This document shows, piece after piece, positions 43,467 to 61,021 of a DNA stretch of 64,000 nt. The notes below the pieces were generated by a model, which made no database searches, was not told the origin of the DNA, and was given only the letters and a program-made list of their open reading frames with translations. The stretch's first letter is position 1. Every line of letters starts with the position of its first letter. The stretch is from Minisyncoccota bacterium (GTDB lineage: Bacteria; Patescibacteriota; Minisyncoccia; Minisyncoccales; JAQTVQ01), in NCBI GenBank assembly GCA_041657385.1, contig JBBABZ010000003.1:8820-72819 (forward strand), given 5' to 3'. The position numbers were made by a program, and so were the translations under genes.

Positions 43467-43602
43467 ACCCCGACTATTGCTCGTCAGCCCGGGTTTAGCC
43501 TTAAACCCAGTCTTCCTCGCAGACCGCGGCCCTGCTCGGGCAGGTCCGCTCGGATTGGGCCGCCAGCCAACGCATTTTAGCCGCAGGTGGGGGTAAAAAG
43601 GG
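43467..43602. repeat. ~133-bp inverted repeat (left copy) flanking the 17-kb cargo; partner at 60889..61021
   Basis: Reverse complement ~90% identical to 60889..61021. A diverged direct copy lies at ~62786..62930. Confidence 0.8.
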
Positions 43603-43763
43603 GGCTAAAATATAATATAAATCGAAGCCGATAGGCTTCGCCAAAAAATTGAAATAAAGTCGAAAAAGAGCTATCTTGAATAAAAATATAGCTTATTTAT
43701 CTTTGATTAAATTAGCCTAAAAATCAGAAAGGAGCGGCGTTGATGATTTAACAAAACAAAAAC

Positions 43764-45215
43764 ATGTTTGAACAATCATTTAAAAATATAGACAATATTC
43801 TTCATACTGATTCCGGTTGCGCAACAGAGCTTGATTATGTTGAACAAACTTCGTGGATCCTTTTTTTGAAATATCTTGATGATTTGGAAGATACTAAAAA
43901 AACTGAAGCGGCGCTGGCCGGAAAAAAATATGAATATATCTTGTCGCCGGAATATCGTTGGAATGTTTGGGCTTGTCCAAAGAATGGCGGCGGTAAACTG
44001 GACCACGGCAAAGCGTTGGACGGAGATGATCTTAGAGATTTTGTAAATCAAAATCTTTTTTCATATCTTAAAAAATTTAAAGCCGATGAACCGAATACCA
44101 TTGAGTATAAAATCGGAGAAATTTTTTCCGAATTAAAAAATAAAATTTCCAGCGGTTATAAGATGCGGGAAATTTTGAATATTGTTGATGGAATGCATTT
44201 TCGTCTTTACGAAGAGAAACACGAGCTTTCGCATCTCTACGAAGCCAAAATTAAGAATATGGGCAACGCCGGACGAAACGGCGGCGAATATTACACGCCA
44301 CGGCCGCTTATTAAAACCATTGTCAAAGTGGTCGCGCCAAAAATTGGCGACAAGATCTATGACGGAGCTTGCGGCAGCGCGGGATTTTTAGTGGAAGCTT
44401 ATAAATATCTTACAGAGAACCAATCCAAGCTTTCTTCAAGCCAGATGTCGACGCTTCAAAATAAATCGTTTTACGGCAAAGAAATAAAATCCCTCGCTTA
44501 CATCATCGGCATCATGAATATGATCCTGCACGGCATTGAAGCGCCAAATATCAGGCATATGAATACGCTGGCCGAAAACATCAATGACATCCAGGAAAAA
44601 GATCGTTTTGATGTTATTCTGGCAAATCCTCCTTTCGGCGCGGGTATTGGCCGAGAAATTCAGCAAAATTTTCCAATCAAGACCGGCGAAACAGCGTTTC
44701 TTTTTCTGCAACATTTCATCAAAATTCTCAAAGCTGGAGGTAAGGCAGGAATCGTTATTAAAAATACCTTTCTTTCCAACACCGATAATGCCTCGGTGTC
44801 TTTGCGAAAATTGCTTTTAGAAAATTGCAATTTACATACCGTTCTTGACTTACCAGGGGGTGTCTTTGCTGGCGCAGGCGTGAAAACCGTTGTTTTGTTT
44901 TTTGAAAAGGGTGCGCCAACAAAAAAAGTTTGGTTTTACCAGCTCAATCTTAGCCGCAATCTTGGTAAGGGCAGCCCTCTAAAAGAAGCGGATCTGGCGG
45001 AATTTGTGGAGCTACAAAAGACCAAGGCGGATAGTGAGAGCTCGTGGAGCGTTGACACTAAAGATATTGATCAAAATACTTTTGATTTGTCGGTAAAGAA
45101 TCCGACCAAGAGCAATGAAGTGATTTTGCGTGAGCCGAAAGAGATTTTGGATGAGATGAACAAATTAGATAAAGATAGTAGTGAAATTTTGAATAACATT
45201 AAAAGATTTTTATAA
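43764..45215 (+). CDS. hsdM: type I restriction-modification system methyltransferase subunit (HsdM, N6-adenine)
   Basis: 483 aa with HsdM N-domain, SAM motif (DGACGSAGFL) and catalytic NPPFG. Confidence 0.9.
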   Translation: MFEQSFKNIDNILHTDSGCATELDYVEQTSWILFLKYLDDLEDTKKTEAALAGKKYEYILSPEYRWNVWACPKNGGGKLDHGKALDGDDLRDFVNQNLFSYLKKFKADEPNTIEYKIGEIFSELKNKISSGYKMREILNIVDGMHFRLYEEKHELSHLYEAKIKNMGNAGRNGGEYYTPRPLIKTIVKVVAPKIGDKIYDGACGSAGFLVEAYKYLTENQSKLSSSQMSTLQNKSFYGKEIKSLAYIIGIMNMILHGIEAPNIRHMNTLAENINDIQEKDRFDVILANPPFGAGIGREIQQNFPIKTGETAFLFLQHFIKILKAGGKAGIVIKNTFLSNTDNASVSLRKLLLENCNLHTVLDLPGGVFAGAGVKTVVLFFEKGAPTKKVWFYQLNLSRNLGKGSPLKEADLAEFVELQKTKADSESSWSVDTKDIDQNTFDLSVKNPTKSNEVILREPKEILDEMNKLDKDSSEILNNIKRFL

Positions 45216-45218
45216 AAT

Positions 45219-46499
45219 ATGGTTGACAGTGAACAAAAGATTAAGTGTCCTAAATGTGGAGAATCAATTTCAATTGATGATGTTCTAACGCACCAAATTG
45301 AAGAAAAAATTAAAAAGGATTTTGAGGTAACTCAAAAAATAAAAGAGGGAGAATTAGCTCAAAAATCAGAAGATTTAAAAAAACAGGCTGCGGAAATTGC
45401 CGAGAACAAAAAAGATATTGGTTCAATGGTGGCAAAACAAGTAGCCGAACAGATGGGGAAAGAAAGACTGGGGCTTTTTAAAGAAGCGAGAACGGAGGCG
45501 GAAAAAGAACAGAGCGCAAAAACCGTGCTTTTAGAAGAACAATTGAAGAGCAAGGATGAGAAATTGGCACAGGCAACAAAGAATGAAGTGGAGTTACGCA
45601 AAGACAAGATAAAGCTAGAGGAAGATAAGCAGGTATTTGAATTGGAAAAAATACGTCAATTGGAAGAATCAAAGAAGGCAATTATTGAAGAAGCAAACAA
45701 GAAAGCAACAGAAGAGCAACAATATGTTATTGCTCAACTGAAAAAACAGCTTACGGATGCAACAAAAGCCAAAGATGATTTGGCACGTAAACTCGAACAG
45801 GGTTCGCAACAAACACAAGGCGAGGTTTTGGAATTAGAGCTTGAAGAGATTTTGAAAACGGAATTTTCACAAGATGAAATAATCCCCGTACCCAAAGGAG
45901 TAAAGGGCGCTGATGTAATTCATAAAATCATAGATCGTTCCGGCCGTTTATGCGGGCAGATTGTTTGGGAATCGAAAAAGACAAAAGCGTGGAGTGAAGG
46001 CTGGATTCAAAAGCTTAAAGACGACCAAAGACTTATAAAGGCGGATGTGGCGGTAATTGTCTCAATAATATTGCCCGAAGGTGTAAAGGGTTTTGCCCTT
46101 AGAGATGGTGTTTTTGTTTGTGATGTAAAACTGGCAATCAATCTTGCCTCATTATTAAGATATGATTTGCTAAAAGTAGCCGAAGCAAACAGAGCATTGG
46201 CTGGGAAAGAAGAGAAAAAAGACGTGGTTTATGCATATGTAAATAGTACTGAATTTAAACAAAGAATCCAAGCCATTGCGGAAGCGTTTATTGAAATGAA
46301 GAACGATATAGATAAGGAGAAAAGATCATATCAAGCCATTTGGGCAAAGAGAGAAAAACAGGTGCAGCGAGTTATAGACAATACATTTGGAATTTATGGA
46401 GACCTAAAAGGGTTAACTGGTGGAACAATACAAGAAATTAAAATGTTGGAATTAGATGCTGGTGAAATTAGAGTAAATGAAGATGAAAAAAATATTTAA
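45219..46499 (+). CDS. DUF2130-like protein (N-terminal CPKCG zinc ribbon, long coiled coil, C-terminal globular domain) embedded in type I R-M locus
   Basis: KCPKCGESISIDD at the N-terminus, ~200 aa of K/E-rich heptads, and a conserved C-terminal domain. Sits between hsdM and hsdS. Confidence 0.55.
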   Translation: MVDSEQKIKCPKCGESISIDDVLTHQIEEKIKKDFEVTQKIKEGELAQKSEDLKKQAAEIAENKKDIGSMVAKQVAEQMGKERLGLFKEARTEAEKEQSAKTVLLEEQLKSKDEKLAQATKNEVELRKDKIKLEEDKQVFELEKIRQLEESKKAIIEEANKKATEEQQYVIAQLKKQLTDATKAKDDLARKLEQGSQQTQGEVLELELEEILKTEFSQDEIIPVPKGVKGADVIHKIIDRSGRLCGQIVWESKKTKAWSEGWIQKLKDDQRLIKADVAVIVSIILPEGVKGFALRDGVFVCDVKLAINLASLLRYDLLKVAEANRALAGKEEKKDVVYAYVNSTEFKQRIQAIAEAFIEMKNDIDKEKRSYQAIWAKREKQVQRVIDNTFGIYGDLKGLTGGTIQEIKMLELDAGEIRVNEDEKNI

Positions 46500-46517
46500 T
46501 TTTAAAAAAGAGTAATT

Positions 46518-48410
46518 GTGTTTTTATCTAAATTTACTATCTTAAATAATAAAAGTTGTAAAACCATTAATCTTGCTCCGTCAAAAACTGAACCGGAAGT
46601 TTTGATTGGTATTAATGATTGTGGTAAATCAACGATACTCAGATCATTAGATATTTTTTTTGATGAGAAAAAAAGCCTCTATTTTCTTCGAGAAGATCAA
46701 CAAAAAAGTGATTTGTCTAATTCCCCGCTCACTGCGCAAGAATTCAACCATGCAATAAGTGATTTTGGATATGCACCATTTTACAATTATTCAGGAAATG
46801 TTATCGGAATCTTATGTGAATTCGAATTAGAAGAAGCTGATAAAACAGATACCGAATTTCAGGACAGTGCAAAAAATCTGCATTTGAAATGGGCTATCGG
46901 TGATTCCAACAAAATCGTCATTTTGCGTATATTTCATGATAACGCTGTCGCGGGTCCAAACCTAAATGGATATTACTTATTAAATAATGATTACAAAAAA
47001 GATGATAATTTTCTTGAGGCTTGGAATAAAACAAAAGAAGTATTAAAAAAAATTCGTAAAGATTTAGCTATAGCTGATGCGGATGTAACTAATGAAAATG
47101 GCAAAGGACCTTTTAAAAATATTGAAGAAATAAGGGCTATTTATAAAAAAGTAGAAGTTGATTTGGAGCTATCATGGTTTTTATATAAGGACTTCTCAAA
47201 AGATAAAACATTTTTTCCAAGTTTTAAATATCTTGATTGGAATTTTTCCTTGAAAGATTTAGAGGATTTGGCCACCGAAGCCATGAATGAGGTAACAAGT
47301 CCGTTATTAGGAGAAATAAAAAGTTTAGCCTCAACAAAGCAAGTTGAAGCAATTGTGGGAGTAAACAAGAAATTTGAAGAATTGATGGGCAATCTAAAAG
47401 ATGAATTGCCTACAAGCATAAAAAAAATTAGTTCCTCTGTATTTTTTAATGTAAACCAAAAAATTACTGATATAAAATTAACGAAGGAGAATGTTGATGG
47501 GGAGGTGCATATTGATAATCAAGGTGACGGAATAAAAAGACAAATTTGGTTCGCGTTATTAAAATGGCGCAGTAAGCTGCCCGTAAGCGAGATAAAAAGA
47601 AACAAATATATTTGGTGTTTTGACGAGCCGGAAACACATTTGTATCCATCAGCGCAAAGACAGCTTTTTAGCACCTTCCGTGATATGTGCGAAAAAGAGT
47701 TCCAAGTATTATTAAGCACTCACTCCACAGTGTTTATTGATAGAACAAGGATAAACAATATTAACAAAGTCGTTTTAAATAATGGCTATTCCGTAATTAA
47801 TAAAACGGACGATATAGATGATATTTTTGATTGTTTGGGTTTGAAAAATAGCGATTTTCTATTTTTTGATAAATTTCTTGCCGTTGAAGGTCCGACCGAA
47901 TATGAACTAATCCCAAAGCTGTATAAACTAAAATTTGGTAAAACTTTAATTGAAGATGGAATTCAGTTGATAAATTTAAAAGGTAAATCGCAGTGTGAAA
48001 ACCATAAACAAATTTTGGAAGATATTTTGTCAAAATTTAAAAAAGCTGATGACAAGATTTATTATTTATTTGATGCTGATACCAAAGTTACTAGAGGAAC
48101 GAATGTTTGTGTAGTTGGAACAAATGACATAGAGGATTCTATCCCTAACAATATTTGGATTAAATTTGTTAAAGATAATTGTGATATTGATTTGACAGAG
48201 CAAATCTTAGATGACGAGATAAGAGCAAAATTAGACCCTCAAAAGAAATTTTATAAATTACTTCATGATTATATTGCAAATAATGTAGTCAATGATAAAT
48301 ATTTACCATCAAAAGGCAGTGATTCTGGATCAATATTAGCAGGATGCTTTACCAATAAAGAAGAAATACCAACGAGTATTAATGATTTTTTTGATTGTAT
48401 CAATTTGTAA
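46518..48410 (+). CDS. OLD-family (overcoming lysogenization defect) ABC-type ATPase + TOPRIM nuclease
   Basis: Walker A GINDCGKSTILRSL, Walker B/D-loop IWCFDEPETHLYPSAQRQL, H-motif LLSTHS, then TOPRIM (LAVEGPTEYELIP glutamate, YYLFDADTK DxD). Confidence 0.75.
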   Translation: MFLSKFTILNNKSCKTINLAPSKTEPEVLIGINDCGKSTILRSLDIFFDEKKSLYFLREDQQKSDLSNSPLTAQEFNHAISDFGYAPFYNYSGNVIGILCEFELEEADKTDTEFQDSAKNLHLKWAIGDSNKIVILRIFHDNAVAGPNLNGYYLLNNDYKKDDNFLEAWNKTKEVLKKIRKDLAIADADVTNENGKGPFKNIEEIRAIYKKVEVDLELSWFLYKDFSKDKTFFPSFKYLDWNFSLKDLEDLATEAMNEVTSPLLGEIKSLASTKQVEAIVGVNKKFEELMGNLKDELPTSIKKISSSVFFNVNQKITDIKLTKENVDGEVHIDNQGDGIKRQIWFALLKWRSKLPVSEIKRNKYIWCFDEPETHLYPSAQRQLFSTFRDMCEKEFQVLLSTHSTVFIDRTRINNINKVVLNNGYSVINKTDDIDDIFDCLGLKNSDFLFFDKFLAVEGPTEYELIPKLYKLKFGKTLIEDGIQLINLKGKSQCENHKQILEDILSKFKKADDKIYYLFDADTKVTRGTNVCVVGTNDIEDSIPNNIWIKFVKDNCDIDLTEQILDDEIRAKLDPQKKFYKLLHDYIANNVVNDKYLPSKGSDSGSILAGCFTNKEEIPTSINDFFDCINL

Positions 48411-48411
48411 T

Positions 48412-49608
48412 ATGGATAAGAAGAACAAAACTAACTGGCAAATAAAAAAACTTGGCGAGGTTTGTGATTTTGAGGGCGGTTCGCAACCGCCTAAAGTTAA
48501 TTTTATTCACGAACCAAGAAAAGGTTATGTGCGCTTTTTACAAATAAGAGATTTTGGAAGCGATAAACACATTACATATATCCCAGACTCGAAGAAAAAT
48601 AGACACTGCACAGAGGATGATATTTTACTTGGTAGATACGGAGCTTCCGTTGGAAAAATATTGATCAATAAAAAGGGAGCATATAATGTAGCTGTAATGA
48701 AAACATTGCCCAAATACGATCTTTTAGATAAAAAGTATTTCTATTTTTATTTAATTTCAGATGAGTTTCAAAAGCGTTTAAGCAAGGTGGCGGCTAGGTC
48801 AGCACAAGCAGGATTTAGTAAAGATGATATTTATGACTTTCCAGTTGTAACGCCGCCCCTCCCTGAACAACGCCGTATTGTGAAAATTTTGGATGAGGTT
48901 TTCGAGAAGACGGCGAAGGCGAAAGAAAATGCGCAAAAAAATCTGCAAAATGCCAAAGAGCTTTTTGAATCGTATTTGCAGAGTGTTTTTGCTCCTCCTT
49001 CGCTAAAGTTAAGAGCGGACAAGGAACCATCGGGAACGAATTGGAAGGAAAAAAAATTGGGAGAAATCGCATCTTTTTCGCAGGGAATACAAGTTGGGTT
49101 AGAAAAACATTTGACGGAGCCAAAAAAAGATTATGTTAGATTTATCAGGATTGTCGATTACACTCAGGACACAGAAGATATCAGATATATTCCAAATCCT
49201 GGAGATAAATATTTTGTTAATGAGAATGATATCGTAATGGTCCGGTATGGCACACCTGGTTTAATCGGGAGAGGAAAAGCGGGTGTAATTGCCAATAATC
49301 TATTCAAGATAACAATAGATAAAAATTATTTGTTGAACGATTATTTATGTTTTTACCTATCTCAAAAAAATATACAAATTTATTTAAGTACCCGAGGTTC
49401 TGCTACTATGCCTGCATTAAATTTTGGGCAGCTTAAAACAGTAGTTATCAATTTTCCATCATTATCCGAGCAAAAAGCGATTGTTGCCAAACTTGATGCA
49501 CTTTCTACCGAAACTAAAAAATTGGAGGCGATTTATAAACAAAAATTAGCGGATTTAGATGAGCTGAAAAAGTCAGTTCTTAAACGTGCCTTTATTGGTG
49601 ATTTATAA
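48412..49608 (+). CDS. hsdS: type I restriction-modification system specificity subunit (HsdS)
   Basis: Two target-recognition domains separated by conserved coiled-coil regions, repeated at the C-terminus (LDEVFEKTAKAKENAQKNLQNAKELFESYLQ). ATG 48412 abuts the OLD gene stop. Confidence 0.85.
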   Translation: MDKKNKTNWQIKKLGEVCDFEGGSQPPKVNFIHEPRKGYVRFLQIRDFGSDKHITYIPDSKKNRHCTEDDILLGRYGASVGKILINKKGAYNVAVMKTLPKYDLLDKKYFYFYLISDEFQKRLSKVAARSAQAGFSKDDIYDFPVVTPPLPEQRRIVKILDEVFEKTAKAKENAQKNLQNAKELFESYLQSVFAPPSLKLRADKEPSGTNWKEKKLGEIASFSQGIQVGLEKHLTEPKKDYVRFIRIVDYTQDTEDIRYIPNPGDKYFVNENDIVMVRYGTPGLIGRGKAGVIANNLFKITIDKNYLLNDYLCFYLSQKNIQIYLSTRGSATMPALNFGQLKTVVINFPSLSEQKAIVAKLDALSTETKKLEAIYKQKLADLDELKKSVLKRAFIGDL

Positions 49609-49620
49609 TAAACTACATTT

Positions 49621-52011
49621 ATGAACGAATCAGAAACACGAGCCGAATATATTGACCCGAAACTTAAAGCGAGCGGATGGGGCGAAGTTGAGGGATCAAA
49701 AGTCCATCGCGAATTTCGTATTACCGAAGGTAAAATTCAAGCTGGCGGAATGCGGGGCAAGCCGGAAATTGCCGACTATATTTTGGTTTATAAAAACCGT
49801 AAAATTGGCGTGATCGAAGCCAAAGCCGAAAACTTGGAAGCCACTGAAGGTGTAGCGCAAGCCAAAGCGTATGCGCAAAAATTGCAGATTGATTATACTT
49901 ACGCCACCAACGGCAAAGAGATTTACGAAATATCTATGAAAACCGGGCGAGAAGGGATTATCGCCGATTTTCCAACTCCTGATGAATTGTGGAATAAGAC
50001 ATATTCTGACCAAAACGAATGGAAAGAAAAGTTTGCGAGCGTGCCAAACGAGGGCGAATACGGCAAGCGCTATTATCAAGAAATCGCCATCAATAATATT
50101 CTAAACGCTGTAGCGGAAGAAAAAAGCAGAATTCTTTTAACTATGGCAACCGGTACCGGAAAAACTGCTGTAGCTTTTCAGGTCGCCTGGAAACTTTTTC
50201 AAACTCGCTGGAATTTGAAACGCGATGGCGCCCGCCGACCGAGAATTTTATTTTTAGCTGACAGGAATATTTTAGCCGATCAAGCGTTCAACGCTTTTTC
50301 CGCTTTTGATAAAGATGCACTTGTCCGCATTAATCCGTTGGATATTCGCAAAAAGGGCGGAGTCCCGATGAGCGGCAGCGTTTATTTCACAATTTTTCAA
50401 ACTTTTATGAGCGGCCAGGGCGGCAGCCCGTATTTCGGCGATTATCCGGCCGACTTTTTTGATTTTATTATAATTGACGAGTGCCATCGCGGCGGAGCCA
50501 ACGATGAAAGCAATTGGCGGGGGATTTTGGAATATTTTTCACCGGCGGTCCAGCTTGGTCTGACTGCCACGCCAAAACGGGCAGATAATATTGATACTTA
50601 TAAGTATTTTGGCGAACCGGTTTATATTTATTCGCTTAAAGAGGGCGTAAATGATGGTTTTTTAACGCCTTTCAAGGTTAAACGGATCAAAACTACGCTT
50701 GATGATTATGTTTATACTTCCGACGATCAAATCATTGAAGGAGAAGTAGAAGAAGGGAAAATTTATGAAGAACCAGATTTCAATCGGATTATTGTTATTA
50801 AAGAACGCGAAGCCAAAAGAGTTCGCGTATTATTGGACGAAATAAATCAAAACGAAAAGACGATTATATTTTGCGCGACCCAAGATCATGCGTTGGCCGT
50901 TCGTGATTTGGTGAATCAAATGAAGAAAAGCAAAGACCCGAATTATTGCGTGCGCGTAACGGCAAATGATGGCGCCCGAGGCGATCAGTTTTTACGTGAA
51001 TTTCAAGATAACGAAAAAACGATCCCGACAATTCTTACAACATCGCAAAAACTTTCTACTGGCGTTGATGCTCGTAATATTAGAAATATTGTTTTAATGC
51101 GACCGGTAAATTCAATGATTGAGTTCAAACAGATCATTGGCCGCGGAACCAGGCTTTTTGATGGAAAGGAATACTTCACGATTTATGATTTTGTGGATGC
51201 CTATAAACATTTCTCCGATCCGGAATGGGATGGCGAACCGGTCGACGAAATATGCTCAAAGTGCGGGAAAGAACCTTGTATTTGTGAAAAGGAACCTCCT
51301 CAAATATGTTCAATATGCGGGAAAGAACCATGTGAATGCGAAAAACCGCCTAAGCTTTGCCCAATATGCGGCAAACTGCCATGCGAATGTAAAAATCAAC
51401 CAAAGAAAAAATTGAAAATAAAACTGCGTGATGGTAAGGAGCGCGAGATAAAGCATATGATCTCCACTTCTTTTTGGGGTGCCGATGGCAAGCCGATCTC
51501 TATTCAAGAGTTTATGGACAATATGTTTGGTACTATGCCGGAATTTTTCAAAAGCGAAGAAGAGCTGAGAAAGATTTGGTCGAATCCGACAACGCGGAAA
51601 GCGTTTTTAGAAAAAATTGCCGAAGCTGGTTATGGCAAAGACGAATTGGAAACGCTGCAAAAAATGATTGATGCCGAGCAAAGCGATTTGTTTGATGTTT
51701 TGTCATACATATCATTCTTAACTCAGCCAATTTCAAGAGTGCAGCGAGTAGAACAAGCAAAAGACAACATTTTTGAAGGCTTAGAAGAAAAACAAAAAGA
51801 ATTTTTAGATTTTGTTTTATCAAAATACGAACAAAAAGGCGTTGAGGAGCTTGATGAAGAAAAATTACCGATCTTACTAAATTTAAAATATCATTCGCCA
51901 GCTGATGCAATAAACATTCTCGGTGATGTAGAAAACATTCGATCAATTTTCTTCGCCTTTCAGAAAAATTTGTATGCCAAAACGAGCAAGGAGTACGCGC
52001 AGAAGAATTGA
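49621..52011 (+). CDS. hsdR: type I restriction enzyme R subunit (HsdR) with Cys-rich tandem-repeat insertion
   Basis: N-terminal PD-(D/E)xK domain (ADYILVY...VIEAKA) and SF2 helicase motifs (ATGTGKT, DECHR). Near the C-terminus, three ~36-39-nt tandem repeats encode C-x2-CGK-x-PC-x-CE (51243-51400). Confidence 0.9.
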   Translation: MNESETRAEYIDPKLKASGWGEVEGSKVHREFRITEGKIQAGGMRGKPEIADYILVYKNRKIGVIEAKAENLEATEGVAQAKAYAQKLQIDYTYATNGKEIYEISMKTGREGIIADFPTPDELWNKTYSDQNEWKEKFASVPNEGEYGKRYYQEIAINNILNAVAEEKSRILLTMATGTGKTAVAFQVAWKLFQTRWNLKRDGARRPRILFLADRNILADQAFNAFSAFDKDALVRINPLDIRKKGGVPMSGSVYFTIFQTFMSGQGGSPYFGDYPADFFDFIIIDECHRGGANDESNWRGILEYFSPAVQLGLTATPKRADNIDTYKYFGEPVYIYSLKEGVNDGFLTPFKVKRIKTTLDDYVYTSDDQIIEGEVEEGKIYEEPDFNRIIVIKEREAKRVRVLLDEINQNEKTIIFCATQDHALAVRDLVNQMKKSKDPNYCVRVTANDGARGDQFLREFQDNEKTIPTILTTSQKLSTGVDARNIRNIVLMRPVNSMIEFKQIIGRGTRLFDGKEYFTIYDFVDAYKHFSDPEWDGEPVDEICSKCGKEPCICEKEPPQICSICGKEPCECEKPPKLCPICGKLPCECKNQPKKKLKIKLRDGKEREIKHMISTSFWGADGKPISIQEFMDNMFGTMPEFFKSEEELRKIWSNPTTRKAFLEKIAEAGYGKDELETLQKMIDAEQSDLFDVLSYISFLTQPISRVQRVEQAKDNIFEGLEEKQKEFLDFVLSKYEQKGVEELDEEKLPILLNLKYHSPADAINILGDVENIRSIFFAFQKNLYAKTSKEYAQKN

Positions 52012-52987: not shown

Positions 52988-53485
52988 GTGAATTTTTTAG
53001 CCGAAGATCTATTAAAAATTAAAACATTGGATCACTCTAAAATTCAAGCGTGGATCAAGCGGTATTTTTATGATTGTGGCTACTATTCCCGAACGGAAAA
53101 GGAAGTTTGGCGGGATAGAAAAGGCCGGATCGATGTGTTCGCCCAAAAGGGGAGCTATACGGTCGGGATCGAAGTCGATCACAGCTCGATCCGGCTGAAC
53201 TCAATTGAAAAGTTGAACGCACTTAATCCGTCTTTGGCGGTTTTTGTTTTAAAGGGGAAAGTTTTCAATTGGGAAAAAACTTATTCTCGTTTCAAATTTT
53301 TAAAGGTGAAATCTTTGATAATCCATTTGCAGACGAAAAGGTACAAGTGGGTCTGTCCCCAAGAGAAAAATTCTTGTAAAATAGACGAAAGTGTGGATAT
53401 TTACAATAAAAAAATACTTTCTAAAATGTGCCAAAATACAGATTCAGAAAATTTGAAAAAAGCCAAACGCCCCTCAAATTCATAA
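52988..53485 (+). CDS. hypothetical protein, possible restriction-endonuclease-like fold
   Basis: 165 aa. GRIDVF...YTVGIEVD could be a D...E-x-D/K nuclease core. Weak. Confidence 0.3.
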   Translation: MNFLAEDLLKIKTLDHSKIQAWIKRYFYDCGYYSRTEKEVWRDRKGRIDVFAQKGSYTVGIEVDHSSIRLNSIEKLNALNPSLAVFVLKGKVFNWEKTYSRFKFLKVKSLIIHLQTKRYKWVCPQEKNSCKIDESVDIYNKKILSKMCQNTDSENLKKAKRPSNS

Positions 53486-54282: not shown

Positions 54283-54330
54283 AGGTCGGCCAGGTTTTAA
54301 ATGTAATATTTTAACGCAACAATAAAACTT

Positions 54331-54837
54331 ATGTTTGCAAGAATAAAACAGGAAGCGATCTTGGAGAGTTGGGGAACTTTGGTCGGATCTGTCAGCGGCC
54401 GGAGCGAGGAATTTTTTAGAAAGACGGGAGAAGCCATAAATAGCTATAAAGTGCCATTTCTTGTAATGGACTATAAGGAAGTTGCTCCCAGTTTTGAAAA
54501 GGGGCTTTTCGGCAAAAAGCGTCCGGCCATCATCGTAACAAACAGAAAAATGCCTGAATATAAGATGTTTATCATGTGCAGGGATTATGGAACGCAACTT
54601 TCGATTTCTTGGTATCTTCTTTCCGCCAGCCCGTTGATGTACGCGATAACGACATTTGCGCAGACCTTAGCGCAAACAAAGAAGCCCATGGATGTATTTC
54701 AACTTGAAGAGCTTTCGTGCTGGACGGCAACCGTCCATCACGCGACAACCGCCGCCTCAAAAGAGATCGCCGAATCGGTTGGCTTCGATTTCTCCAAGGT
54801 TGATCAAAAATCAAGAGGTTTTTTAAATATTTCTTAA
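54331..54837 (+). CDS. hypothetical protein upstream of TraD/VirD4-like ATPase
   Basis: 168 aa. Its stop abuts the ATPase start. Confidence 0.5.
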   Translation: MFARIKQEAILESWGTLVGSVSGRSEEFFRKTGEAINSYKVPFLVMDYKEVAPSFEKGLFGKKRPAIIVTNRKMPEYKMFIMCRDYGTQLSISWYLLSASPLMYAITTFAQTLAQTKKPMDVFQLEELSCWTATVHHATTAASKEIAESVGFDFSKVDQKSRGFLNIS

Positions 54838-54838
54838 A

Positions 54839-56383
54839 ATGATTCCAGGCTGGTTGCGCCAATTCTTGGAAAAAGCCAAAGCGGTTTTGAAAAAGATTTG
54901 GGCCATCTTGAATAAGGATATTTTCGTCAAACCGCGTCCGTCAAAACCGGATGCGGCGAATGAAGTGCCTCCAGAAAGGAGGCTGGATTTGGGCTACGCT
55001 TGGGGCGTTGACGAGAAAACGAATATGGAAGGCTTTACCCAGAGAAAAGCGATCTATACGGATTATCGAAAGACGCATTTTTATATAATTGGCGCAACCG
55101 GCACCGGCAAGACCAAGTTTTTGGAGTCGCTCATTATCCAGGACCTCGTGAATGGCGAAGGCTTTGCGGTTATAGATCCGCACGGCGATCTGACCGAGAA
55201 TATCAAGGGTTGGCTGTATCACAAAACGCAAAAAGATTTTCAAAAGGATATTATTTTGATCGAGCCGACTAATCTTGAAAAGACCGTTAGTTTCAACCCC
55301 TTGGAGCCGATACCGGGCATCTCAAGCTCGGAGATCGCCAGCGAGCTGGTGGAAGTGTTTAGAAAGATTTGGATCGATTCCTGGGGCGAGCGGATGGCCG
55401 ATATAATGCGCAACTCTTTGATCGCGCTGGTGGAAAACGGCCTGACCTTGGCCGAATTGCCGCCGTTTTTGACAAATACCGCTTTCCGTAGAAAAGTGAT
55501 GCGTAATGTGAAGAATCCAACCTGCTTGGAACGGCTCGAATATTTCAATTCTTTGCCGCCTTCCACTTGGCGGGAATGGATCGAATCGACCTTGAATAAA
55601 GTAGATGCTTTTCTTTCGGATGCGAGGATCCGTGATATATTCTCTTCGCCTAAAAGTTCTTTCAACCTTCGGGAAATTATGGACAGCGGGAAAATCCTGC
55701 TGGTCAATCTAAGCCGGGGAAGACTGAAAGGCGGAGCCAATCTTTTGGGAGCGCTTCTGGTCAGCAAAATCCAGATGGCCGCTTTTTCCCGTGCCGATAT
55801 GCCGCAAACCAGCCGAAAGCAGTTTTATCTTTACATCGACGAGTTTCAAAATTTTGCCACGGAAAGTTTTGTCGAGATGTTAAGCGAGGCGCGGAAATAC
55901 AAACTTTCCCTGATAATGGCGCACCAGAATTTAAGCCAGCTCCCAAGAACTTTGAAGGATTCTATCCTTGCCAATTGCGGCATTCAAGCCTGTTTTCGCG
56001 TTAATCGTGAAGATGCCCAATTGCTGGCCAAGGAGCTGTTAAGCCCGCTTTACCAGCACCAGCCCGGCTGGGAGCTGAACATCCAGCGCTTGCAGGAACT
56101 GCCGCCGCGGACCTGCTTTGTGGCCAACCGGATGGAAGGCGGGATAATTTATATCTCCACGCCGGACGTGCCTAATCCTTGGGAGCTTATCTGGGGCGAA
56201 GAAGACGGCGAATGGAAGACTTATGACGAGGAAACTTTTCGCAGATTTATGGATGTAATGGGTTACGGTGCCTCTTATTTGCGGGATAGGGCCGAAGTAG
56301 AGGAGGAATATCTGCAAAGGTATACCGAGCTCGTTAAAAGCAAGGAAGGAGAGAATTTCAGGGAAAGAAAAGGCCAAATTTGA
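54839..56383 (+). CDS. TraD/TraG/VirD4-family coupling-protein-like P-loop ATPase (island copy)
   Basis: Walker A GATGTGKT, IDPHGD and Walker B FYLYIDEFQNFAT, the same signature as 9175..11037. Confidence 0.7.
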   Translation: MIPGWLRQFLEKAKAVLKKIWAILNKDIFVKPRPSKPDAANEVPPERRLDLGYAWGVDEKTNMEGFTQRKAIYTDYRKTHFYIIGATGTGKTKFLESLIIQDLVNGEGFAVIDPHGDLTENIKGWLYHKTQKDFQKDIILIEPTNLEKTVSFNPLEPIPGISSSEIASELVEVFRKIWIDSWGERMADIMRNSLIALVENGLTLAELPPFLTNTAFRRKVMRNVKNPTCLERLEYFNSLPPSTWREWIESTLNKVDAFLSDARIRDIFSSPKSSFNLREIMDSGKILLVNLSRGRLKGGANLLGALLVSKIQMAAFSRADMPQTSRKQFYLYIDEFQNFATESFVEMLSEARKYKLSLIMAHQNLSQLPRTLKDSILANCGIQACFRVNREDAQLLAKELLSPLYQHQPGWELNIQRLQELPPRTCFVANRMEGGIIYISTPDVPNPWELIWGEEDGEWKTYDEETFRRFMDVMGYGASYLRDRAEVEEEYLQRYTELVKSKEGENFRERKGQI

Positions 56384-56430
56384 AGAAATCCTTTACTTCT
56401 TTACTGTTTGTATAGTAAGAATAAGGCAAT

Positions 56431-57180
56431 ATGGATTTTATAGCTTCAAACTTAATAACTCCGGCCATAATTATTTCTGCGGCCGCCTATCTTACAAGAT
56501 TTTACGGTAAGGTTATCTCAGATCGAAAACCATTTTCTGACGATCGAGATTGGGAGATCGAATTTTCCGGAATTCTTTTTTTTATAACCATGCTCCTCTC
56601 TGTTGTGCCTGGGATTTTTAGCGCTTTAAAAATCGGTTGGCTTTTCCCTTTTGAGTGCCCTATAATTATGATTGTCTTTTTTTCGACGCTTTGGTTATCG
56701 ATTAGTATAGATATTCTTATTGATAAAAACACATATAAAAAGATATACGATATCAAAATTCCATTTATCCAAAATTTATTTAAATCAGCTAAAGATGACA
56801 GGACAAGATTAAAAGAACCCAACGCAAAATTTTGGACCATTAACGAATATGTGATACTTTGGTTTTTCCCATTCTTATATACATATATTTTGACCATCGA
56901 ATACCAGTCTCAAAATATAGAACGGTTATTCTCCGCAGGGCTCCTCGTTTTTTTAAATTCTATTTTAATAGCACTATTCTACTCACTAAGGAGAAATCGG
57001 CCACGGAAAGCTGATATAATTTTTATAAATAGAGAAAGGTCTCTTTTTGATGTGCTGTTATTAAAGGTAAATAATGATAATGTTCGCATTAAGCAGAAAG
57101 AGAAGGTTTCTATTATTAATAAAGACCAAATTGAGAGGATAGAATTACTTCCGATAAAAGATAATGCTAAAAAATATTAG
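56431..57180 (+). CDS. hypothetical polytopic membrane protein
   Basis: 249 aa, at least 5 hydrophobic helices. Confidence 0.5.
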   Translation: MDFIASNLITPAIIISAAAYLTRFYGKVISDRKPFSDDRDWEIEFSGILFFITMLLSVVPGIFSALKIGWLFPFECPIIMIVFFSTLWLSISIDILIDKNTYKKIYDIKIPFIQNLFKSAKDDRTRLKEPNAKFWTINEYVILWFFPFLYTYILTIEYQSQNIERLFSAGLLVFLNSILIALFYSLRRNRPRKADIIFINRERSLFDVLLLKVNNDNVRIKQKEKVSIINKDQIERIELLPIKDNAKKY

Positions 57181-57201
57181 AATTAATTAAAAAAACGATA
57201 A

Positions 57202-57984
57202 ATGCCAGATAAGATTATCATTTACCCGGAATTTACTATAGAAGAAATGGAGAGCGCTTTGTCTCCTTTTATGTCGAGTAGAACCCATAGCAGAAATATA
57301 GCTTACAGTTTGCAATTTTTGAAATATTGCGAAGAATTGATAAAACAAAAAATTGAGGTTAAATTTGCGATAGATTCTATCTTCTCAAAAGCGATGACCG
57401 TTATAGCATCTTCTGTCATAGAATGTTTGATATTTGATTCTTTAAAGAAAAATGATTGTTGCTTAGAGAAATGGAAAGACTTCCAACCTCCAACAGAGTT
57501 ACCGATTTATAAAGATGATCCAAACAGAAGGGTGAGGATAGTTTATCAAGAAAAAATAGAAGAGCCTCTAGACAAGTTTGTTCCTTTCGGAATGGCTATA
57601 AACTTAGCTATTGAAAATCAAATTATTGATAGTGGGATTAGATCATCGCTCGACAAAGTAAAAAGCGCAAGAGATTTGATACATATCAGAGGCGGCGAGG
57701 ATTTGGATATGAAAAAAATTAATTTAGATTTTTATTTTAAAATTACGCGGCCTACCTTAATAAAGATAATGGAGAAATTAAAACTAAAAAAAGCTATAGA
57801 ACTATTTGAATTGAGCAAAGCATCAGAATCAAAACCAAAAGAGATTGTTAAAAAACCATATTATAAGGGAGCTTCTATGGTTTGGTCTGTATCTAATAAG
57901 AAATGGTATTTAGTTAAAAAAGAAGGGGGGTTGGTTGATTTTCTTGGGGAGGAGAAAGATATTGAATGGCGAATTGTAAAATAA
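57202..57984 (+). CDS. hypothetical protein
   Basis: 260 aa, no motif recognised. Confidence 0.5.
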   Translation: MPDKIIIYPEFTIEEMESALSPFMSSRTHSRNIAYSLQFLKYCEELIKQKIEVKFAIDSIFSKAMTVIASSVIECLIFDSLKKNDCCLEKWKDFQPPTELPIYKDDPNRRVRIVYQEKIEEPLDKFVPFGMAINLAIENQIIDSGIRSSLDKVKSARDLIHIRGGEDLDMKKINLDFYFKITRPTLIKIMEKLKLKKAIELFELSKASESKPKEIVKKPYYKGASMVWSVSNKKWYLVKKEGGLVDFLGEEKDIEWRIVK

Positions 57985-58003
57985 ATATAAGATCAAAAAT
58001 AAA

Positions 58004-58816
58004 ATGCAAATTGATTCACCCGATATCAACGCGTTAATAAAGGATATTTTGCCGATCGAGGCTTCTTTCACCGGAGATCCCGGCCGTCCGGAGTCGGAAC
58101 AGGCTGTGGCGCAAAGCATAGAACGGTGGAGATTAAGCTATTTAAAAGAGCTGGAGGCGAACAATTCCCTTGATGATATCAAAAAATTCAAAGTTTTTAT
58201 CACCAGCCTATTATTAAGGGCCAACAGAGGCGAGGTCGGCGGGAGATTGTATAGGGCTCTTAACGATAGAATAAACGATTTCAAAGATCTGGATAGGAAA
58301 ACCGTCGCAGCCGTTTTAAAAGATGCTGGTTACCGTTTCCAACTTCAAGGCATAGAGACGGTGCTGGATGCCAAAAAATTATTGCTTGATAGGTATCAAG
58401 GCAGCTGGGATGGATATTTTAAAGAAGCAAAAGAAAATTACAGAAATAATTTTCCAGATGACGATTTTTTAAAGATAAAGGGGGTGGGCTTCAAGGTAAG
58501 AGATCTGGCCTCGAGCTGTTTTTTAAAAGAATATTCCGCTAATGATTTTCATGTAGTGGATGTTCTAGTAAGGACAGGTTTGATTTTATACGGATACGGC
58601 AATTTTAATTTTGGAACTAATCCTAATAATAACGAAAACTATTTATTTTTAAGGAATTTGATAATCAATATCTCCGAGCAAACACCTTATTCCCCAGGAG
58701 AAATTGATAGAATTTTTTGGCATTTCGGTCGGGCAGTTTGCAAAAGTAAGCCGTTGTGTGAAAAATGCTTCATTAAAAATATATGTTTGACCTATAGAAA
58801 TATAAAAGAGATTTGA
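58004..58816 (+). CDS. HhH-GPD superfamily DNA glycosylase with C-terminal 4-Cys (FeS-type) cluster, endonuclease III/MutY-like
   Basis: HhH-GPD signature LKIKGVGFKVRDLASSCFL...FHVVDVLVRTG (Lys + Asp). C-terminal C-x5-C-x2-C-x5-C (CKSKPLCEKCFIKNIC). Confidence 0.65.
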   Translation: MQIDSPDINALIKDILPIEASFTGDPGRPESEQAVAQSIERWRLSYLKELEANNSLDDIKKFKVFITSLLLRANRGEVGGRLYRALNDRINDFKDLDRKTVAAVLKDAGYRFQLQGIETVLDAKKLLLDRYQGSWDGYFKEAKENYRNNFPDDDFLKIKGVGFKVRDLASSCFLKEYSANDFHVVDVLVRTGLILYGYGNFNFGTNPNNNENYLFLRNLIINISEQTPYSPGEIDRIFWHFGRAVCKSKPLCEKCFIKNICLTYRNIKEI

Positions 58817-58842
58817 TAGGAAACTAAAAATTACAATATTTT

Positions 58843-59364
58843 ATGGCAAAACTTTTTACGGATGGAAATAAACACAACGAACTTGCTGATGAAGTTATCA
58901 ATGCATCTACGAAAGCTCTTTCATATTTTTTTGAAGAGTGCCAGGAAGCGATTAGAACGAAAGATATAAGCGCAGTTGAGCTGTATCTTTTTTATCTTTG
59001 CCAGACGTGGTTTTTGTTAAAAAGTCATATTTTAGAGATGGGCGCAGACCAAAACGACCAAATGGTATTATTCGGAACAATAATTCATAAATTTTGCAAC
59101 AGAGCTGCCTCCTTAACATTTTCTAAGAACTTAGCGGCGGAAAATAATAATTTAGATTTTTGGGGTCAGGAATTAAAGAAAAATTTGATTTTTTATCAAC
59201 AAATAGCAAATGAGGGGGGAGTGGCTGAATTAATGCAGGTTGCTTATAATAAGATTATTAAGTCTGATGATCAAGATTTTCAATCGGCAACAGGCAAAGC
59301 GTTTTTAGCATCCGCATACATTGCCTCTGTTCATATCGAAGAAAAATTAGAAGAACTAATGTAG
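58843..59364 (+). CDS. hypothetical protein
   Basis: 173 aa, helical. Confidence 0.45.
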   Translation: MAKLFTDGNKHNELADEVINASTKALSYFFEECQEAIRTKDISAVELYLFYLCQTWFLLKSHILEMGADQNDQMVLFGTIIHKFCNRAASLTFSKNLAAENNNLDFWGQELKKNLIFYQQIANEGGVAELMQVAYNKIIKSDDQDFQSATGKAFLASAYIASVHIEEKLEELM

Positions 59365-59390
59365 AGAAGCATTTTTTATCTATAAAAATT

Positions 59391-59654
59391 ATGGCTAAAA
59401 AGACTCAAAAACTTTCTAATCTTAGTCCATTCGCATTCCAGAGGGAGCTTTATGCATCTGATGGTATAAACATTATAAGGACAATTCCGACTAAGGGCGG
59501 AAAGGCTCCCTTCATCGCTTATCTTAAAATTGGTTATGGGAAAGAGATTGAAGTCGATTATTCGATTGACGATGTCGCCCAAGTTTTATCTTCCGGATAT
59601 GAAATTACGAAAGAAGATTATGACAAATCTGACGGCGAAGTTAGGAATAGATAG
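59391..59654 (+). CDS. hypothetical protein
   Basis: 87 aa. Confidence 0.4.
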   Translation: MAKKTQKLSNLSPFAFQRELYASDGINIIRTIPTKGGKAPFIAYLKIGYGKEIEVDYSIDDVAQVLSSGYEITKEDYDKSDGEVRNR

Positions 59655-59700
59655 TTTCCCGCGGTATGATAACCTTTATTTTTTAAAAGAAAGTTAAGCT

Positions 59701-60237
59701 ATGGATTTTCCTAAGGAGCTACGACCAGCAAATAAAATGGAACTTCGGCTTTCGGATGGCATAGTAGTAGCCTTGCCAGTGGCTTATCCAAAGTTTTTAG
59801 CTTGGAAGGGACCATCTGTTGTTTTTGATTATGGAAACAAGCCCATAATTAATTACAAAGAGGAAGCGTGTTTTGCTGAGCTTGCAGTTCTTCGCCTTTT
59901 ACTTGATCAGGGATGGGACGGAGTGTGGGTTGAAAGTTACGGGGGCACTCATTATTTGCGAAGTATGCCTCAAGCATGGAATTTGCAATCGGAACATATA
60001 TTGATCCCGCAAGACAAAGAATGTTTACTGCAAAAGATATGGAAAGTAGCCAAGACGACGGCTTGTTTCGATGTTTTTGCATGGCACGATGACCAGTTAG
60101 TATTTTTTGAGGCTAAAAGGACAGGAAAAGATAAGCTTACTTCTCCTCAGATAAGATTTATAGAAGGAGCCTTGGCGTGTGGGATATCGCCGGAATCGCT
60201 CATTATTGTTGAGTGGGAAGATATTTCTTCGAGTTAA
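59701..60237 (+). CDS. VRR-NUC / PD-(D/E)xK-type nuclease domain protein
   Basis: FDVFAWHDDQLVFFEAKRTGKDKLTSPQIRFIEGALACG matches the VRR-NUC core (D ... E-A-K ... Q). Confidence 0.55.
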   Translation: MDFPKELRPANKMELRLSDGIVVALPVAYPKFLAWKGPSVVFDYGNKPIINYKEEACFAELAVLRLLLDQGWDGVWVESYGGTHYLRSMPQAWNLQSEHILIPQDKECLLQKIWKVAKTTACFDVFAWHDDQLVFFEAKRTGKDKLTSPQIRFIEGALACGISPESLIIVEWEDISSS

Positions 60238-60239
60238 AT

Positions 60240-60780
60240 TTCTCCTTATAGGCTATTCGGGCGGTCGTCGTTGGTTTTAAGTAATCAGCCGCCGCCGGTA
60301 GGCCTTGCTCTCTTTGACGATAGGAAAAGTGTGTTTTAAAGGTCCCGCCAAAGCGGGATTTTTAAAAGCCGGACGGCGGCGGCTGATTAGTATCCTGAGC
60401 TGGAAATTTTCGGAAAGGCTTTTGCGATAGAGTAAAAGACTTTCGGGAAAAGCGGACCCGCAAAAAACTATAGGAACCGGCCGCCGGAAAATCAAATGTC
60501 TCCGCGTCAGGTGTCATTTGATAGCGAAGCGGTTTATGGCGGCGGTTCCGTTAAATGGTTTTTGGCGGGGGAGCGGTTTCCGGCGGCCCCTGCCTGCTTT
60601 CTTGGAGTCTTGTCACTGGCCTTGGTCAGTTCATCGCGTGATTATGGCTCTATCCATCACATACCTCTGTCCAGGCGCTGTTTTGGCTTGGAGTTACCTC
60701 TTACTTAGGCATTGCTTCCAAAACAGCGCCGTTGACTACGGCAGAACCGTCCGGCGTTCGGATTGGGCCGCTTTCGATAG
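60240..60780. other. GC-rich noncoding region with multiple long perfect stem-loops (candidate structured RNA or oriT/ori/att region)
   Basis: 17-bp stem TAATCAGCCGCCGCCGG ... CCGGCGGCGGCTGATTA; GGAACCGGCCGCC ... GGCGGCGGTTCC enclosing ATCAAATG...CATTTGAT; 13-bp stem GGCGCTGTTTTGG ... CCAAAACAGCGCC. No long ORF. Confidence 0.5.
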
Positions 60781-60782
60781 CT

Positions 60783-60872
60783 AAAAAGTCTGCGTTCTTC
60801 ATTTCTCTGCGTGTTACCTTTACTCTGCGTTCTTAGAACGCAGAGTCAACGCAGAGAGAACGCAGACTTTTT
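60783..60872. repeat. nested palindrome (AAAAAGTCTGCGTTC ... GAACGCAGACTTTTT with inner CTCTGCGTTC-TTA-GAACGCAGAG)
   Basis: Perfect 15-bp outer and 10-bp inner inverted repeats centred at 60833-60835. CTCTGCG/CGCAGAG occurs four times. Confidence 0.8.
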
Positions 60873-60888
60873 AGCGAGCCAACGCATA

Positions 60889-61021
60889 CCTTTTTACCCC
60901 CACCTGCGGCTAAAATGCGTTGGCTACGGCCCAATCCGAGCGGACCTGCCCGAGCAGGGCCGCGGTCTGCGAGGAGGACTGGGTTTTAGCAAAAATACAG
61001 GCTGACGAGCAATAGTCGGGG
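60889..61021. repeat. ~133-bp inverted repeat (right copy), partner of 43467..43602; overlaps 3' extension of recombinase 2
   Basis: ~90% identical to the reverse complement of 43467..43602. Confidence 0.8.

Follow-up and report, generated by a model that had tools for sequence, protein, structure and literature searches.

The stretch analyzed here (the window) is 64,000 nucleotides (nt) of contig JBBABZ010000003.1 from a Minisyncoccota bacterium. It carries two large serine recombinase genes, rec1 and rec2, long inverted repeats (IRs) around each of them and around a block of cargo genes, and a tRNA-Gly(CCC) gene next to the rec1 stop codon. We conclude that the window contains a tandem array of two islands of one family, termed E1 and E2, which are stacked at tRNA-Gly (Table 1). 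The recombinases are co-oriented and 86% identical, and both contain the Resolvase, Recombinase and Zn_ribbon_recom domains (Pfam PF00239, PF07508 and PF13408, with E-values for rec1 of 7.7e-20, 1.4e-13 and 2.2e-8, respectively). Their nucleophilic S10, in the motif YxRxSTxxQ, is invariant across 51 homologs. By their domains and by their recombination sites, rec1 and rec2 belong among the integrase-type large serine recombinases.

The repeat that encloses the cargo, IR-b, consists of outer arms of 95 nt (43468-43562/60927-61021, 92% complementary) and inner arms of 37 nt (43565-43601/60889-60925, 100% complementary), spaced 17.3 kb apart. Scanning the 64-kb window revealed no other inverted repeat of this size besides the two pairs flanking the recombinases, which excludes chance as the source of IR-b. 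These two pairs are IR-a around rec1 (94 nt, 94% identity) and IR-c around rec2 (92 nt, 99% identity). A further, direct copy (IR-b'') is diverged and resembles most closely the version found in the sister genome described below. An earlier interpretation of this DNA, made from the letters alone (the sequence-only reading), had described the inverted repeats at 43467-43602 and 60889-61021, the two co-oriented serine recombinases and their nested arrangement, all of which we recovered; the nested arrangement also recurs in related loci. Its third repeat copy, placed at 62786-62930, is real, direct and about 70% identical, but its position is slightly further to the right. That reading had missed the tRNA-Gly(CCC) gene by the rec1 stop and the direct repetition of a 1.9-kb module composed of rec, its upstream region, IR-b and a hairpin (41748-43640 versus 61087-62975). 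It had also missed three features that organize what follows: the repeats are copies of attachment-site arms, a tRNA 3' end is the target, and the crossover lies inside the integrase gene.

Attachment-site arms at tRNA genes

We used rec1 to scan species-representative genomes and JGI metagenomes, each scan returning more than 550 relatives, and retained 160 loci whose recombinases are 49-63% identical to rec1 and which come almost entirely from the Candidate Phyla Radiation (CPR)/Patescibacteria. Within these genome and metagenome scans the closest relative of the window recombinase reached no more than 63% identity; close relatives came from the protein database only, where homologs at E<1e-50 number more than 7,900. 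A recurrent layout emerged in the related loci, running from the tRNA through X-rec-X' and Y-cargo-Y' to the flank. Of the 111 eligible loci, 103 carry the near-perfect X/X' inverted repeat (median length 97.5 nt, identity 99%); its X arm spans the final rec codons, and its X' arm is situated 30-200 nt upstream of the ATG. In 67 of 112 loci the X arm shares 4-8 nt with a tRNA gene of convergent orientation, and these tRNAs are those for Asn, Ala, Gln, Gly, Ser, Glu, Asp, Trp and Phe. Among the 72 loci where 3 kb or more of upstream sequence was available, 43 showed a near-perfect Y/Y' pair, with a median length of 144 nt and a maximum of 400 nt. Its distal arm lies 0.6-8.5 kb from the proximal one, and the proximal arm either abuts X' or overlaps it by 3-13 nt (37 of 52) or is separated from it by a gap of 13-125 nt (the other 15). 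Applied to the window, this layout assigns IR-a and IR-c to the X pairs and IR-b/IR-b' to the Y pair of E1.

At L010, L016, L030, L036, L101, L107, L118 and L134, a T-arm and an acceptor-like 3' end (..GGTTCGAATCC..GGAGC) stand beyond the X arm at sites where ARAGORN made no tRNA call; these could be tRNA fragments, unusual tRNAs or tmRNA 3' ends serving as targets. One 7.3-kb contig, L154, carries identical rec units at 94-2044 and 5268-7218 in inverted orientation to each other, representing either a palindromic mis-assembly from repeats or a real head-to-head pair.

We aligned the three junctions of the layout (J1, J2 and J3) across 37 loci. All three have one core of 3-13 nt in common, which comprises the terminal bases of the acceptor stem and the discriminator and in some cases CCA, and their arms match B and P' at J1, P and P' at J2, and P and B' at J3. 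Thus J1 (tRNA-core-X') is attL (B·P'), J3 (Y-core-flank) is attR (P·B'), and J2 (Y-core-X') is an intact internal attP (P·P') that is inverted relative to attL and attR. The X/X' repeat around rec and the adjacent Y/Y' repeat around the cargo both result from this inverted attP copy, which each element keeps between rec and cargo. In the window, the identity of the IR-a arms reaches exactly into the four tRNA bases of the J1 core, and the same geometry is found in the 37 loci.

The P arm carries a T-loop-like motif, GTTCGRAT, while the B arm has the T-loop of the tRNA (GTTCGAAT). The P-arm motif is exactly 5 bp more distant from the core than the tRNA T-loop in 24 of the 26 loci that scored well. 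In the window, the T-loop GTCCGACT at 41718-41725 stands 9 nt before the core CGCT and the P-arm GTCCGAAC stands 14 nt from the core; among non-RNase-P sites of the window, the P-arm motif occurs only at J2 of E2 and at 43380. According to a published rule for serine integrases, an outer DNA motif sits 5 bp nearer the center in attB than in attP (PMC3783163), and the agreement of the GTTCGRAT shift with this rule argues strongly that integration is genuinely of the attP x attB kind and that the T-loop is its recognition motif. Because the T-loop is universal, one family is able to use many different tRNAs. We also considered RNA-guided (bridge-RNA-like) targeting, given the structured noncoding region beside the recombinase, and set it aside: protein-type half-site logic explains the choice of target, and what is shared with the tRNA amounts to 4-8 nt only.

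The boundary between the two islands follows the same logic. To the left of X2 lies the degenerate proximal P arm of E1, and where the two meet, the array has a hybrid junction, P(E1)-core-P'(E2). Of the two possibilities raised by the sequence-only reading, tandem serine-recombinase-mobilized islands proved to be the right one. Reading through the E1 P arm as ..TKLGP.. instead of ..EKVRT.., rec2 has 54 extra codons and lacks a proper tail. E1 looks partly decayed, with X arms 94% identical (the family median is 99%) and a scrambled attR-proximal P arm. Arm identity is 99% within an element versus 77% between E1 and E2.

In the sister genome GCA_022710775.1 (L212), the LepA-DivIC-tRNA-Gly(CCC) site is likewise occupied, by a Rec that shares 84% identity with rec1, together with 236-nt Y arms that are 100% identical and an unrelated cargo of AAA_15, pP_pnuc_1 and DpnI. 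A comparison with sister genomes had been proposed as a check on mobility, and the finding of a related integrase with different cargo at one tRNA-Gly site supports it. These are tRNA islands in both defining respects, a boundary at the tRNA 3' end and content that varies between relatives: tRNA-Gly abuts rec1, the sister cargo differs, and 67 related loci lie at tRNAs.

The crossover within the integrase gene

In nearly all loci the rec open reading frame (ORF) crosses the core, which lies 15-25 codons before the true rec stop. In the common configuration the frame continues into the tRNA and ends in junk, such as ..DSNxxP.. before the stop (the T-arm translated backwards) or, in rec1, ..SMSG-stop. 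When we joined the rec 3' end virtually to the P arm, a conserved tail of 15-25 residues appeared in about 90 loci, with the consensus W-x-x-(L/I)(L/Y)-x-(K/E)-(I/V)-R-T-(F/Y/H)-F-x-(E/Q)-N-P-D-x-x-F-stop. The virtual proteins of the window are 500 amino acids (aa) long and end, before the stop, in ..SMSDLYEKVRTFFLNGED (rec1) and ..EMSCLYEKVRTFFLEENS (rec2), with DLYEKVRTFFLNGED and CLYEKVRTFFLEENS as their respective tails. The variation of the tail is typical of coding sequence, because its entropy by codon position is 1.18, 0.71 and 1.28 and because it shows synonymous variation at Arg (CGA, AGA or CGG) and at Thr (all four ACN codons). Its conservation (..F-F-x-E-N-P-D-x-x-F) also extends past the 25 bp needed by a half-site. 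An AlphaFold model of a natural full-length homolog places the tail in a helix (residues 481-495) that follows a disordered 30-residue linker.

X' and the P arm together are a spare, intact rec 3' end, inverted and upstream of rec; in the window, tblastn detected the X1' arm as a plus-strand fragment of residues 441-485. Since the core is inside the rec ORF, the conserved C-terminal tail is replaced by tRNA read-through in the integrated state; the spare 3' end resides in X' and the P arm, so that the full-length gene is regained when the 1.6-kb rec segment flips. Rec is in this sense a self-disrupting integrase: the core lies within its ORF, the protein is changed on integration, and the tail occurs only in the P·P' context. 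Inspection of the window sequence revealed no convincing start codon from which the spare 3' end could be made as a separate peptide. In L212 (9796-9981, minus strand), and likewise in L214 and L216, gene callers annotated the spare 3' end with its tail as a 61-aa ORF.

The truncated state dominates in nature. A full-length tail is present in 7 of 133 complete ORFs in the loci and in about 7 of 110 protein clusters, an overall share of about 5-7%. Inversion of the rec segment is seen between L099 and L106, whose units are 100% identical: in L099 the rec 3' end faces tRNA-Asn and 6.4 kb of host DNA, which in L106 are found upstream of rec instead, and L014 is arranged like L106. Full-length rec also occurs where an element is the distal member of a tandem and reads into its neighbor's P arm (L042, L123 and L222). 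Cargo inverts as well. The whole 6.4-kb Y'-cargo-Y block is reversed between L135 and L136 at 100% identity, and the same full-length rec accompanies opposite cargo orientations in L222 and L223-225. The arms of the latter pair are 56 nt long and 89% identical, with the crossover in the innermost perfect 28 nt; as they are shorter than the assembler k of 141, this inversion is not an assembly ambiguity. Populations thus contain both orientations of each segment, as in L135/L136, L099/L106 and L222/L223-225. For the window's own lineage a single arrangement was found, shared by one 11.3-kb contig in the European Nucleotide Archive, and the exact rec2 protein is not on record.

Tandem arrays with hybrid P·P' junctions were found in the window and in L042. 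In the window the elements that meet there have X arms (X1 and X2) only 77% alike, and such junctions suggest that Rec may also be able to recombine attP with attL. The tandem junctions and the flips together suggest attL x attP-type events, with homologous recombination as a possible alternative. At the tRNA-Ser end of L222 (11499-11693), about 25 nt of an X arm are left, fused to a truncated Y arm, and a deletion has apparently removed rec from the tRNA-proximal element there; the distal rec of L222 is full length because it reads into the P arm of this tRNA-proximal element.

Cargo and a structured noncoding element

The features of the window are collected in Table 1. Pfam upheld the type I restriction-modification (R-M), replication-relaxation and TraD/VirD4-like assignments made for the E1 cargo by the sequence-only reading, as well as the second R-M system that it had placed after rec2. 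The glycosylase and nuclease genes it had listed received weak matches, to Ogg-HhH (E=1e-3) and Cas4 (E=1.7e-3), both below the Pfam cut-offs. None of the E1 cargo coding sequences is split or swapped by the repeats, and a promoter and terminator scan of 43150-43800 gave chance-level hits only.

Table 1 Features of the window. Positions count from the first letter of the window; J, junction; P and P', arms of attP.
Feature	Position	Strand	Remarks
tRNA-Gly(CCC)	41667-41739	+	Rfam 50.2 bits, ARAGORN; abuts rec1 stop codon; supplies B half-site
rec1	41730-43190	-	486 aa, truncated state; ORF ends ..FISMSG-stop, final 3 codons from tRNA
E1	41735 to about 61075		J1 core at 41735-41738
J1 core CGCT (attL crossover region)	41735-41738		tRNA positions 70-73: acceptor-stem end and discriminator
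X1 arm	41735-41828		IR-a arm; P' arm of attL; holds final ~30 codons of rec1
X1' arm	43275-43368		IR-a arm; inverted noncoding copy of rec1 3' end; starts 85 nt upstream of rec1 ATG
J2 of E1	43365-43415	+	core AGCG (43365-43368) and proximal P arm; encodes spare tail DLYEKVRTFFLNGED-stop; contains GTTCGGAC, complement GTCCGAAC
IR-b (Y1)	43467-43602	+	distal P-arm part at J2; copy of first 133 nt of structured element
E1 cargo	43603-60239	+	all genes on plus strand; Pfam families below, plus nine ORFs without firm family
hsdM	43764-45215	+	Pfam
DUF2130	45219-46499	+	Pfam
OLD/AAA_15 nuclease	46518-48410	+	Pfam
hsdS	48382-49608	+	Pfam
hsdR	49621-52011	+	Pfam
Replic_Relax	53428-54282	+	Pfam
VirD4/TraD-like ATPase	54839-56383	+	Pfam
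Large structured noncoding element	60540-61021	-	rec sense; possibly to about 60240; first 133 nt are IR-b'
IR-b' (Y1')	60889-61021		P arm at right end of E1 (attR side)
rec2	60910-62529	-	539 aa; ORF continues 54 codons, crossing degenerate P arm and then IR-b'
Degenerate proximal P arm of E1	61022-61075		GGTCCTAGC..GATATA, joined to X2; aligned to reverse complement of 43369-43466
E2	61076 to beyond 64000		continues past window
X2 arm	61076-61167		IR-c arm
X2' arm	62610-62701		IR-c arm
J2 of E2	62697-62750	+	core and P arm encoding spare tail CLYEKVRTFFLEENS-stop
IR-b'' (Y2)	about 62818-62950	+	diverged copy
Tsp45I-type restriction enzyme	63022-63810	+	first E2 cargo gene; Pfam PF06300, E=1.2e-123; E2 extends beyond window

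Across the family, the commonest cargo among 132 proteins from 47 elements comprises DNA methyltransferases, restriction enzymes, OLD nucleases, LexA/S24-like repressors and helix-turn-helix (HTH) regulators. Relative to rec, the cargo is fully divergent in 33 elements and fully co-directional in 5. Similar Y arms are linked to unrelated cargo in different elements, and replication genes are missing from most. In viral contigs, rec1 as query matched only two N-terminal fragments, leaving the idea of the elements as phages unsupported. One relative at tRNA-Gly(GCC), L217 (286-7520), has a rec (P0005) 76% identical and cargo that resembles a diversity-generating retroelement (RVT_1, bAvd and a 1271-aa DUF5907 protein).

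The large structured noncoding region proposed by the sequence-only reading is real: 60540-61026 on the minus strand folds at -209.6 kcal/mol (z = -10.25). The element, about 480 nt long, is 85% identical to L105 2378-2861, a copy whose start is 2 nt past the stop codon of a full-length rec that shares only about 54% identity with rec1, and a more diverged copy lies at the attR end of the sister-genome element (L212 4834-5330). Across the three copies we counted 114 consensus pairs, 19 of them with compensatory changes, and G·U pairs fall on the rec-sense strand. IR-b alone folds no better than shuffles (z -0.2 to -2.6), the plus strand included; the 133-nt unit does not fold convincingly because two helix halves within it pair only with sequence in 60540-60888. 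The covariance analysis recommended for the 133-bp element succeeds only when that element is taken as the 5' end of the roughly 480-nt structure. Rfam 15 gave nothing relevant for IR-b or the structured element, either at the gathering threshold (window) or at E<=10 (60200-63050). Homologs of IR-b were absent from L001-L080 by nhmmer and blastn, and an exact 15-mer scan of viral contigs gave 47 matches, all by chance, of which none fit the element profile. In other subfamilies this place is taken by unrelated Y arms. We conclude that this is a strongly structured, covarying and undescribed noncoding element that directly follows full-length rec in the attP configuration.

Several observations elsewhere in the window are recorded here. 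An insert in hsdR (51239-51394) consists of three tandem repeats of 51-54 nt encoding Cys-rich units (C..CGK.PC.CE). A second VirD4/TraD-like ORF lies at 9175-11037, where an 86-nt stretch is 78% identical to the cargo copy (9998-10083/55815-55900), and another mobile element may be present upstream. The class A RNase P RNA at 36920-37416 is unusually long (497 nt versus a 367-position model; 103.5 bits against a gathering threshold of 100). AT-rich repeats of the 'GAAAATT' type, unrelated to the islands, occur inverted at 575-632/29188-29245 (28.5 kb apart) and direct at 29202-29307/33110-33215 (3.9 kb apart).

Mechanism, alternatives and significance

Together, these data are probably best explained by self-truncating, tRNA-targeting islands in which integration disarms Rec and a flip of the rec segment re-arms it. 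Integration by attP x attB recombination at the tRNA 3' end swaps the Rec tail for tRNA read-through, and this self-truncation, which would parallel that of the archaeal 'suicidal' integrases, would stabilize the island. A rare inversion of the 1.6-kb rec segment would then rejoin rec with its spare tail and re-arm the element for excision or transfer. The flip could result from homologous recombination of the arms, which are long and nearly perfect, and/or from the action of Rec on attL and the internal attP, and cargo inversion would be a by-product of the same duplication. The regulatory role of the truncation is putative.

A number of points weigh against this interpretation. It is drawn from sequences, and a difference in activity between truncated and full-length Rec is hypothetical. 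The tail helix, which follows a disordered linker, is modeled with modest confidence (pLDDT 54-61), and in the 37-locus junction alignment we looked for a mirror motif in the half-sites P' and B' and found none that was clear. Canonical serine integrases do not recombine attL with attP, so flipping and tandem formation driven by Rec would be non-canonical. Inversions with perfect arms longer than common k-mers, namely L099/L106 and partly L135/L136, could be assembler choices. The crossovers of the cargo inversions differ, lying within 139 nt of the core in one case and in the innermost 28 nt in the other; these differing positions, with the concerted evolution of the arms, fit homologous recombination between arms better than a dedicated site. 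In the window itself, a gap of 98 nt separates X' from the proximal Y arm, so that the Y pair does not abut X', and E1 may be immobile given its degenerate right-end P arm.

One alternative is an account without any regulatory role, in which the nested repeats are an ancestral inverted attP duplication homogenized by gene conversion, Rec works equally with either tail, and inversions are neutral. The unfixed crossover points of the cargo inversions would be expected on this account, as would arms that evolve in concert within an element (99%) while diverging between E1 and E2 (77%), and the family is hugely successful even though most copies are truncated. We nevertheless regard it as unlikely. 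The X-X' duplication persists in 103 of 111 loci whose Rec proteins are only about 50% identical, the frame, stop and protein-level conservation of the spare tail are maintained on a non-expressed strand, and a neutral relic of 200-500 nt would be expected to decay or vanish in streamlined CPR genomes. Still less probable, in our judgment, is a shufflon-like phase switch, in which Rec flips the 17.3-kb cargo, or a rec segment with an outward promoter, and so toggles the R-M and defense genes. An invertible or shufflon-like segment was the other possibility raised by the sequence-only reading, and part of it stands: both segments occur in both orientations in other members of the family, the cargo consists mostly of R-M and defense genes, a class often phase-varied, and the Salmonella Hin recombinase gene likewise sits inside its own invertible segment, flanked by inverted repeats. 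The remainder does not, since the repeats rearrange no cargo coding sequence, the HTH or promoter region with which the cargo genes start is their own and part of the segment, there is a strong bias in orientation (33 versus 5), and att-arm duplication, always at a tRNA 3' end, explains the repeats completely. Nor does Rec, at 486-540 aa and of the integrase type, with repeats that are 70-400-nt att-arm copies, resemble a small serine invertase or Rci acting on short sites.

Two further explanations, each of which we consider very improbable, would separate the repeats from island integration. X-rec-X' might be an autonomous 1.6-kb transposon resembling an insertion sequence (IS), with terminal inverted repeats of about 100 nt and a serine transposase, its association with islands being coincidental. 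Many contigs of 1.5-1.8 kb are indeed just X-rec-X', contig breaks often fall at the arms, and some genomes hold several copies; perfect inverted repeats longer than k would break contigs anyway. The unit lies almost always between a tRNA 3' end and a P arm, one of its 'terminal repeats' is the coding rec 3' end with the ORF running past it, target-site duplication is absent, and copies within a genome are diverged (86% in protein and 77% in arms in the window), and we therefore rejected its classification as an IS or transposon. IR-b might instead be a small RNA gene in three copies, unconnected to recombination, as it is GC-rich and conserved, lies within a strongly structured element and shows compensatory changes between copies. 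This is difficult to reconcile with its failure to fold beyond shuffles without 60540-60888, its position, which is fixed with respect to the att core in the window, in L105 and in L212, and the unrelated Y arms that other subfamilies place there.

The self-truncation reading invites comparison with known systems. In its domain set with coiled-coil, short core, P and B half-sites and 5-bp motif shift, Rec is like the phage-type large serine integrases (Listeria A118/LI, phiC31 and Bxb1). It differs from them in targeting a tRNA 3' end with the T-loop as B-site motif, in having the core inside its own ORF and in keeping an extra inverted attP in the integrated element; tandem arrays and flips of the islands moreover imply attL x attP-type events, and we identified no candidate for a directionality factor. 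Mobility by a large serine recombinase is shared with Tn4451 and Tn5397, in which a lone enzyme (TnpX or TndX) excises a circle and inserts it and the ends and the joint resemble each other. Those elements have neither long repeats nor a tRNA target, and their recombinase gene is uninterrupted. Inverted repeats around a flipping segment are also found in the Hin/Gin/Cin systems and R64-type shufflons. There, small serine invertases act at 26-bp sites together with a Fis enhancer or, in shufflons, the enzyme is the tyrosine recombinase Rci, and the promoters or ends of other genes are switched, whereas here the repeats are att-arm copies of 70-400 nt and the gene end that is swapped is the recombinase's own. 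By analogy, the circle predicted after excision, with two long inverted site copies and two unique segments that could flip relative to each other, recalls the yeast 2-micron plasmid, in which FLP acts on 599-bp inverted repeats and flipping serves copy-number amplification. FLP is a tyrosine recombinase on a eukaryotic plasmid, and most of the islands lack replication genes.

Tycheposons are likewise small cargo islands at tRNA genes that stack in tandem and vary between close relatives, but 910 of 937 have tyrosine recombinases and their repeats are direct tRNA fragments (bioRxiv 10.1101/2020.12.28.424599). The islands described here share with them the defense cargo at tRNAs, the stacking and the variation; an internal inverted att copy and self-truncation have not been described for tycheposons. 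The closest parallel for self-disruption is the SSV-type 'suicidal' tyrosine integrases (SSV1, pTN3 and pT26-2), in which the site lies within the integrase's own gene, integration breaks that gene, and excision is thought to be blocked until an intact copy is available (PMC8371274). Rec is not a member of this group, being a serine recombinase from CPR bacteria that is alike only in self-disruption: the SSV-type enzymes are split into two large fragments, whereas Rec loses about 15-25 C-terminal residues and the island carries a spare copy that inversion can reconnect. We tentatively propose, as a plausible but less secure extension, that these islands, which number thousands in the CPR, represent a bacterial serine counterpart of the archaeal 'suicidal' integrases, combining T-loop mimicry, a self-cut C-terminal helix, an inversion switch that would give directionality without a separate excision factor and, in one subfamily, a structured RNA of ~480 nt after the re-armed gene.

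In the full-text literature searched, which did not cover all journals, we found no description of this island architecture; use of the T-loop as an attB motif, a crossover within the integrase's own ORF and a reconnectable inverted gene end are undescribed there for serine integrases. A 2021 review stated that self-disrupting recombinases were known only in archaea (PMC8371274), and self-disruption of a bacterial serine enzyme bears on that generalization. If the tail controls activity or direction, Rec would represent a compact, factor-free means of regulating a serine integrase through two natural isoforms, and integrases with predictable tRNA targets are of interest for genome engineering. 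Many contig breaks in CPR metagenome assemblies can be traced to the long perfect repeats. CPR bacteria have tiny genomes and few recognized mobile elements, and this family, always at tRNA genes, appears to be a main vehicle for R-M and defense genes among them.

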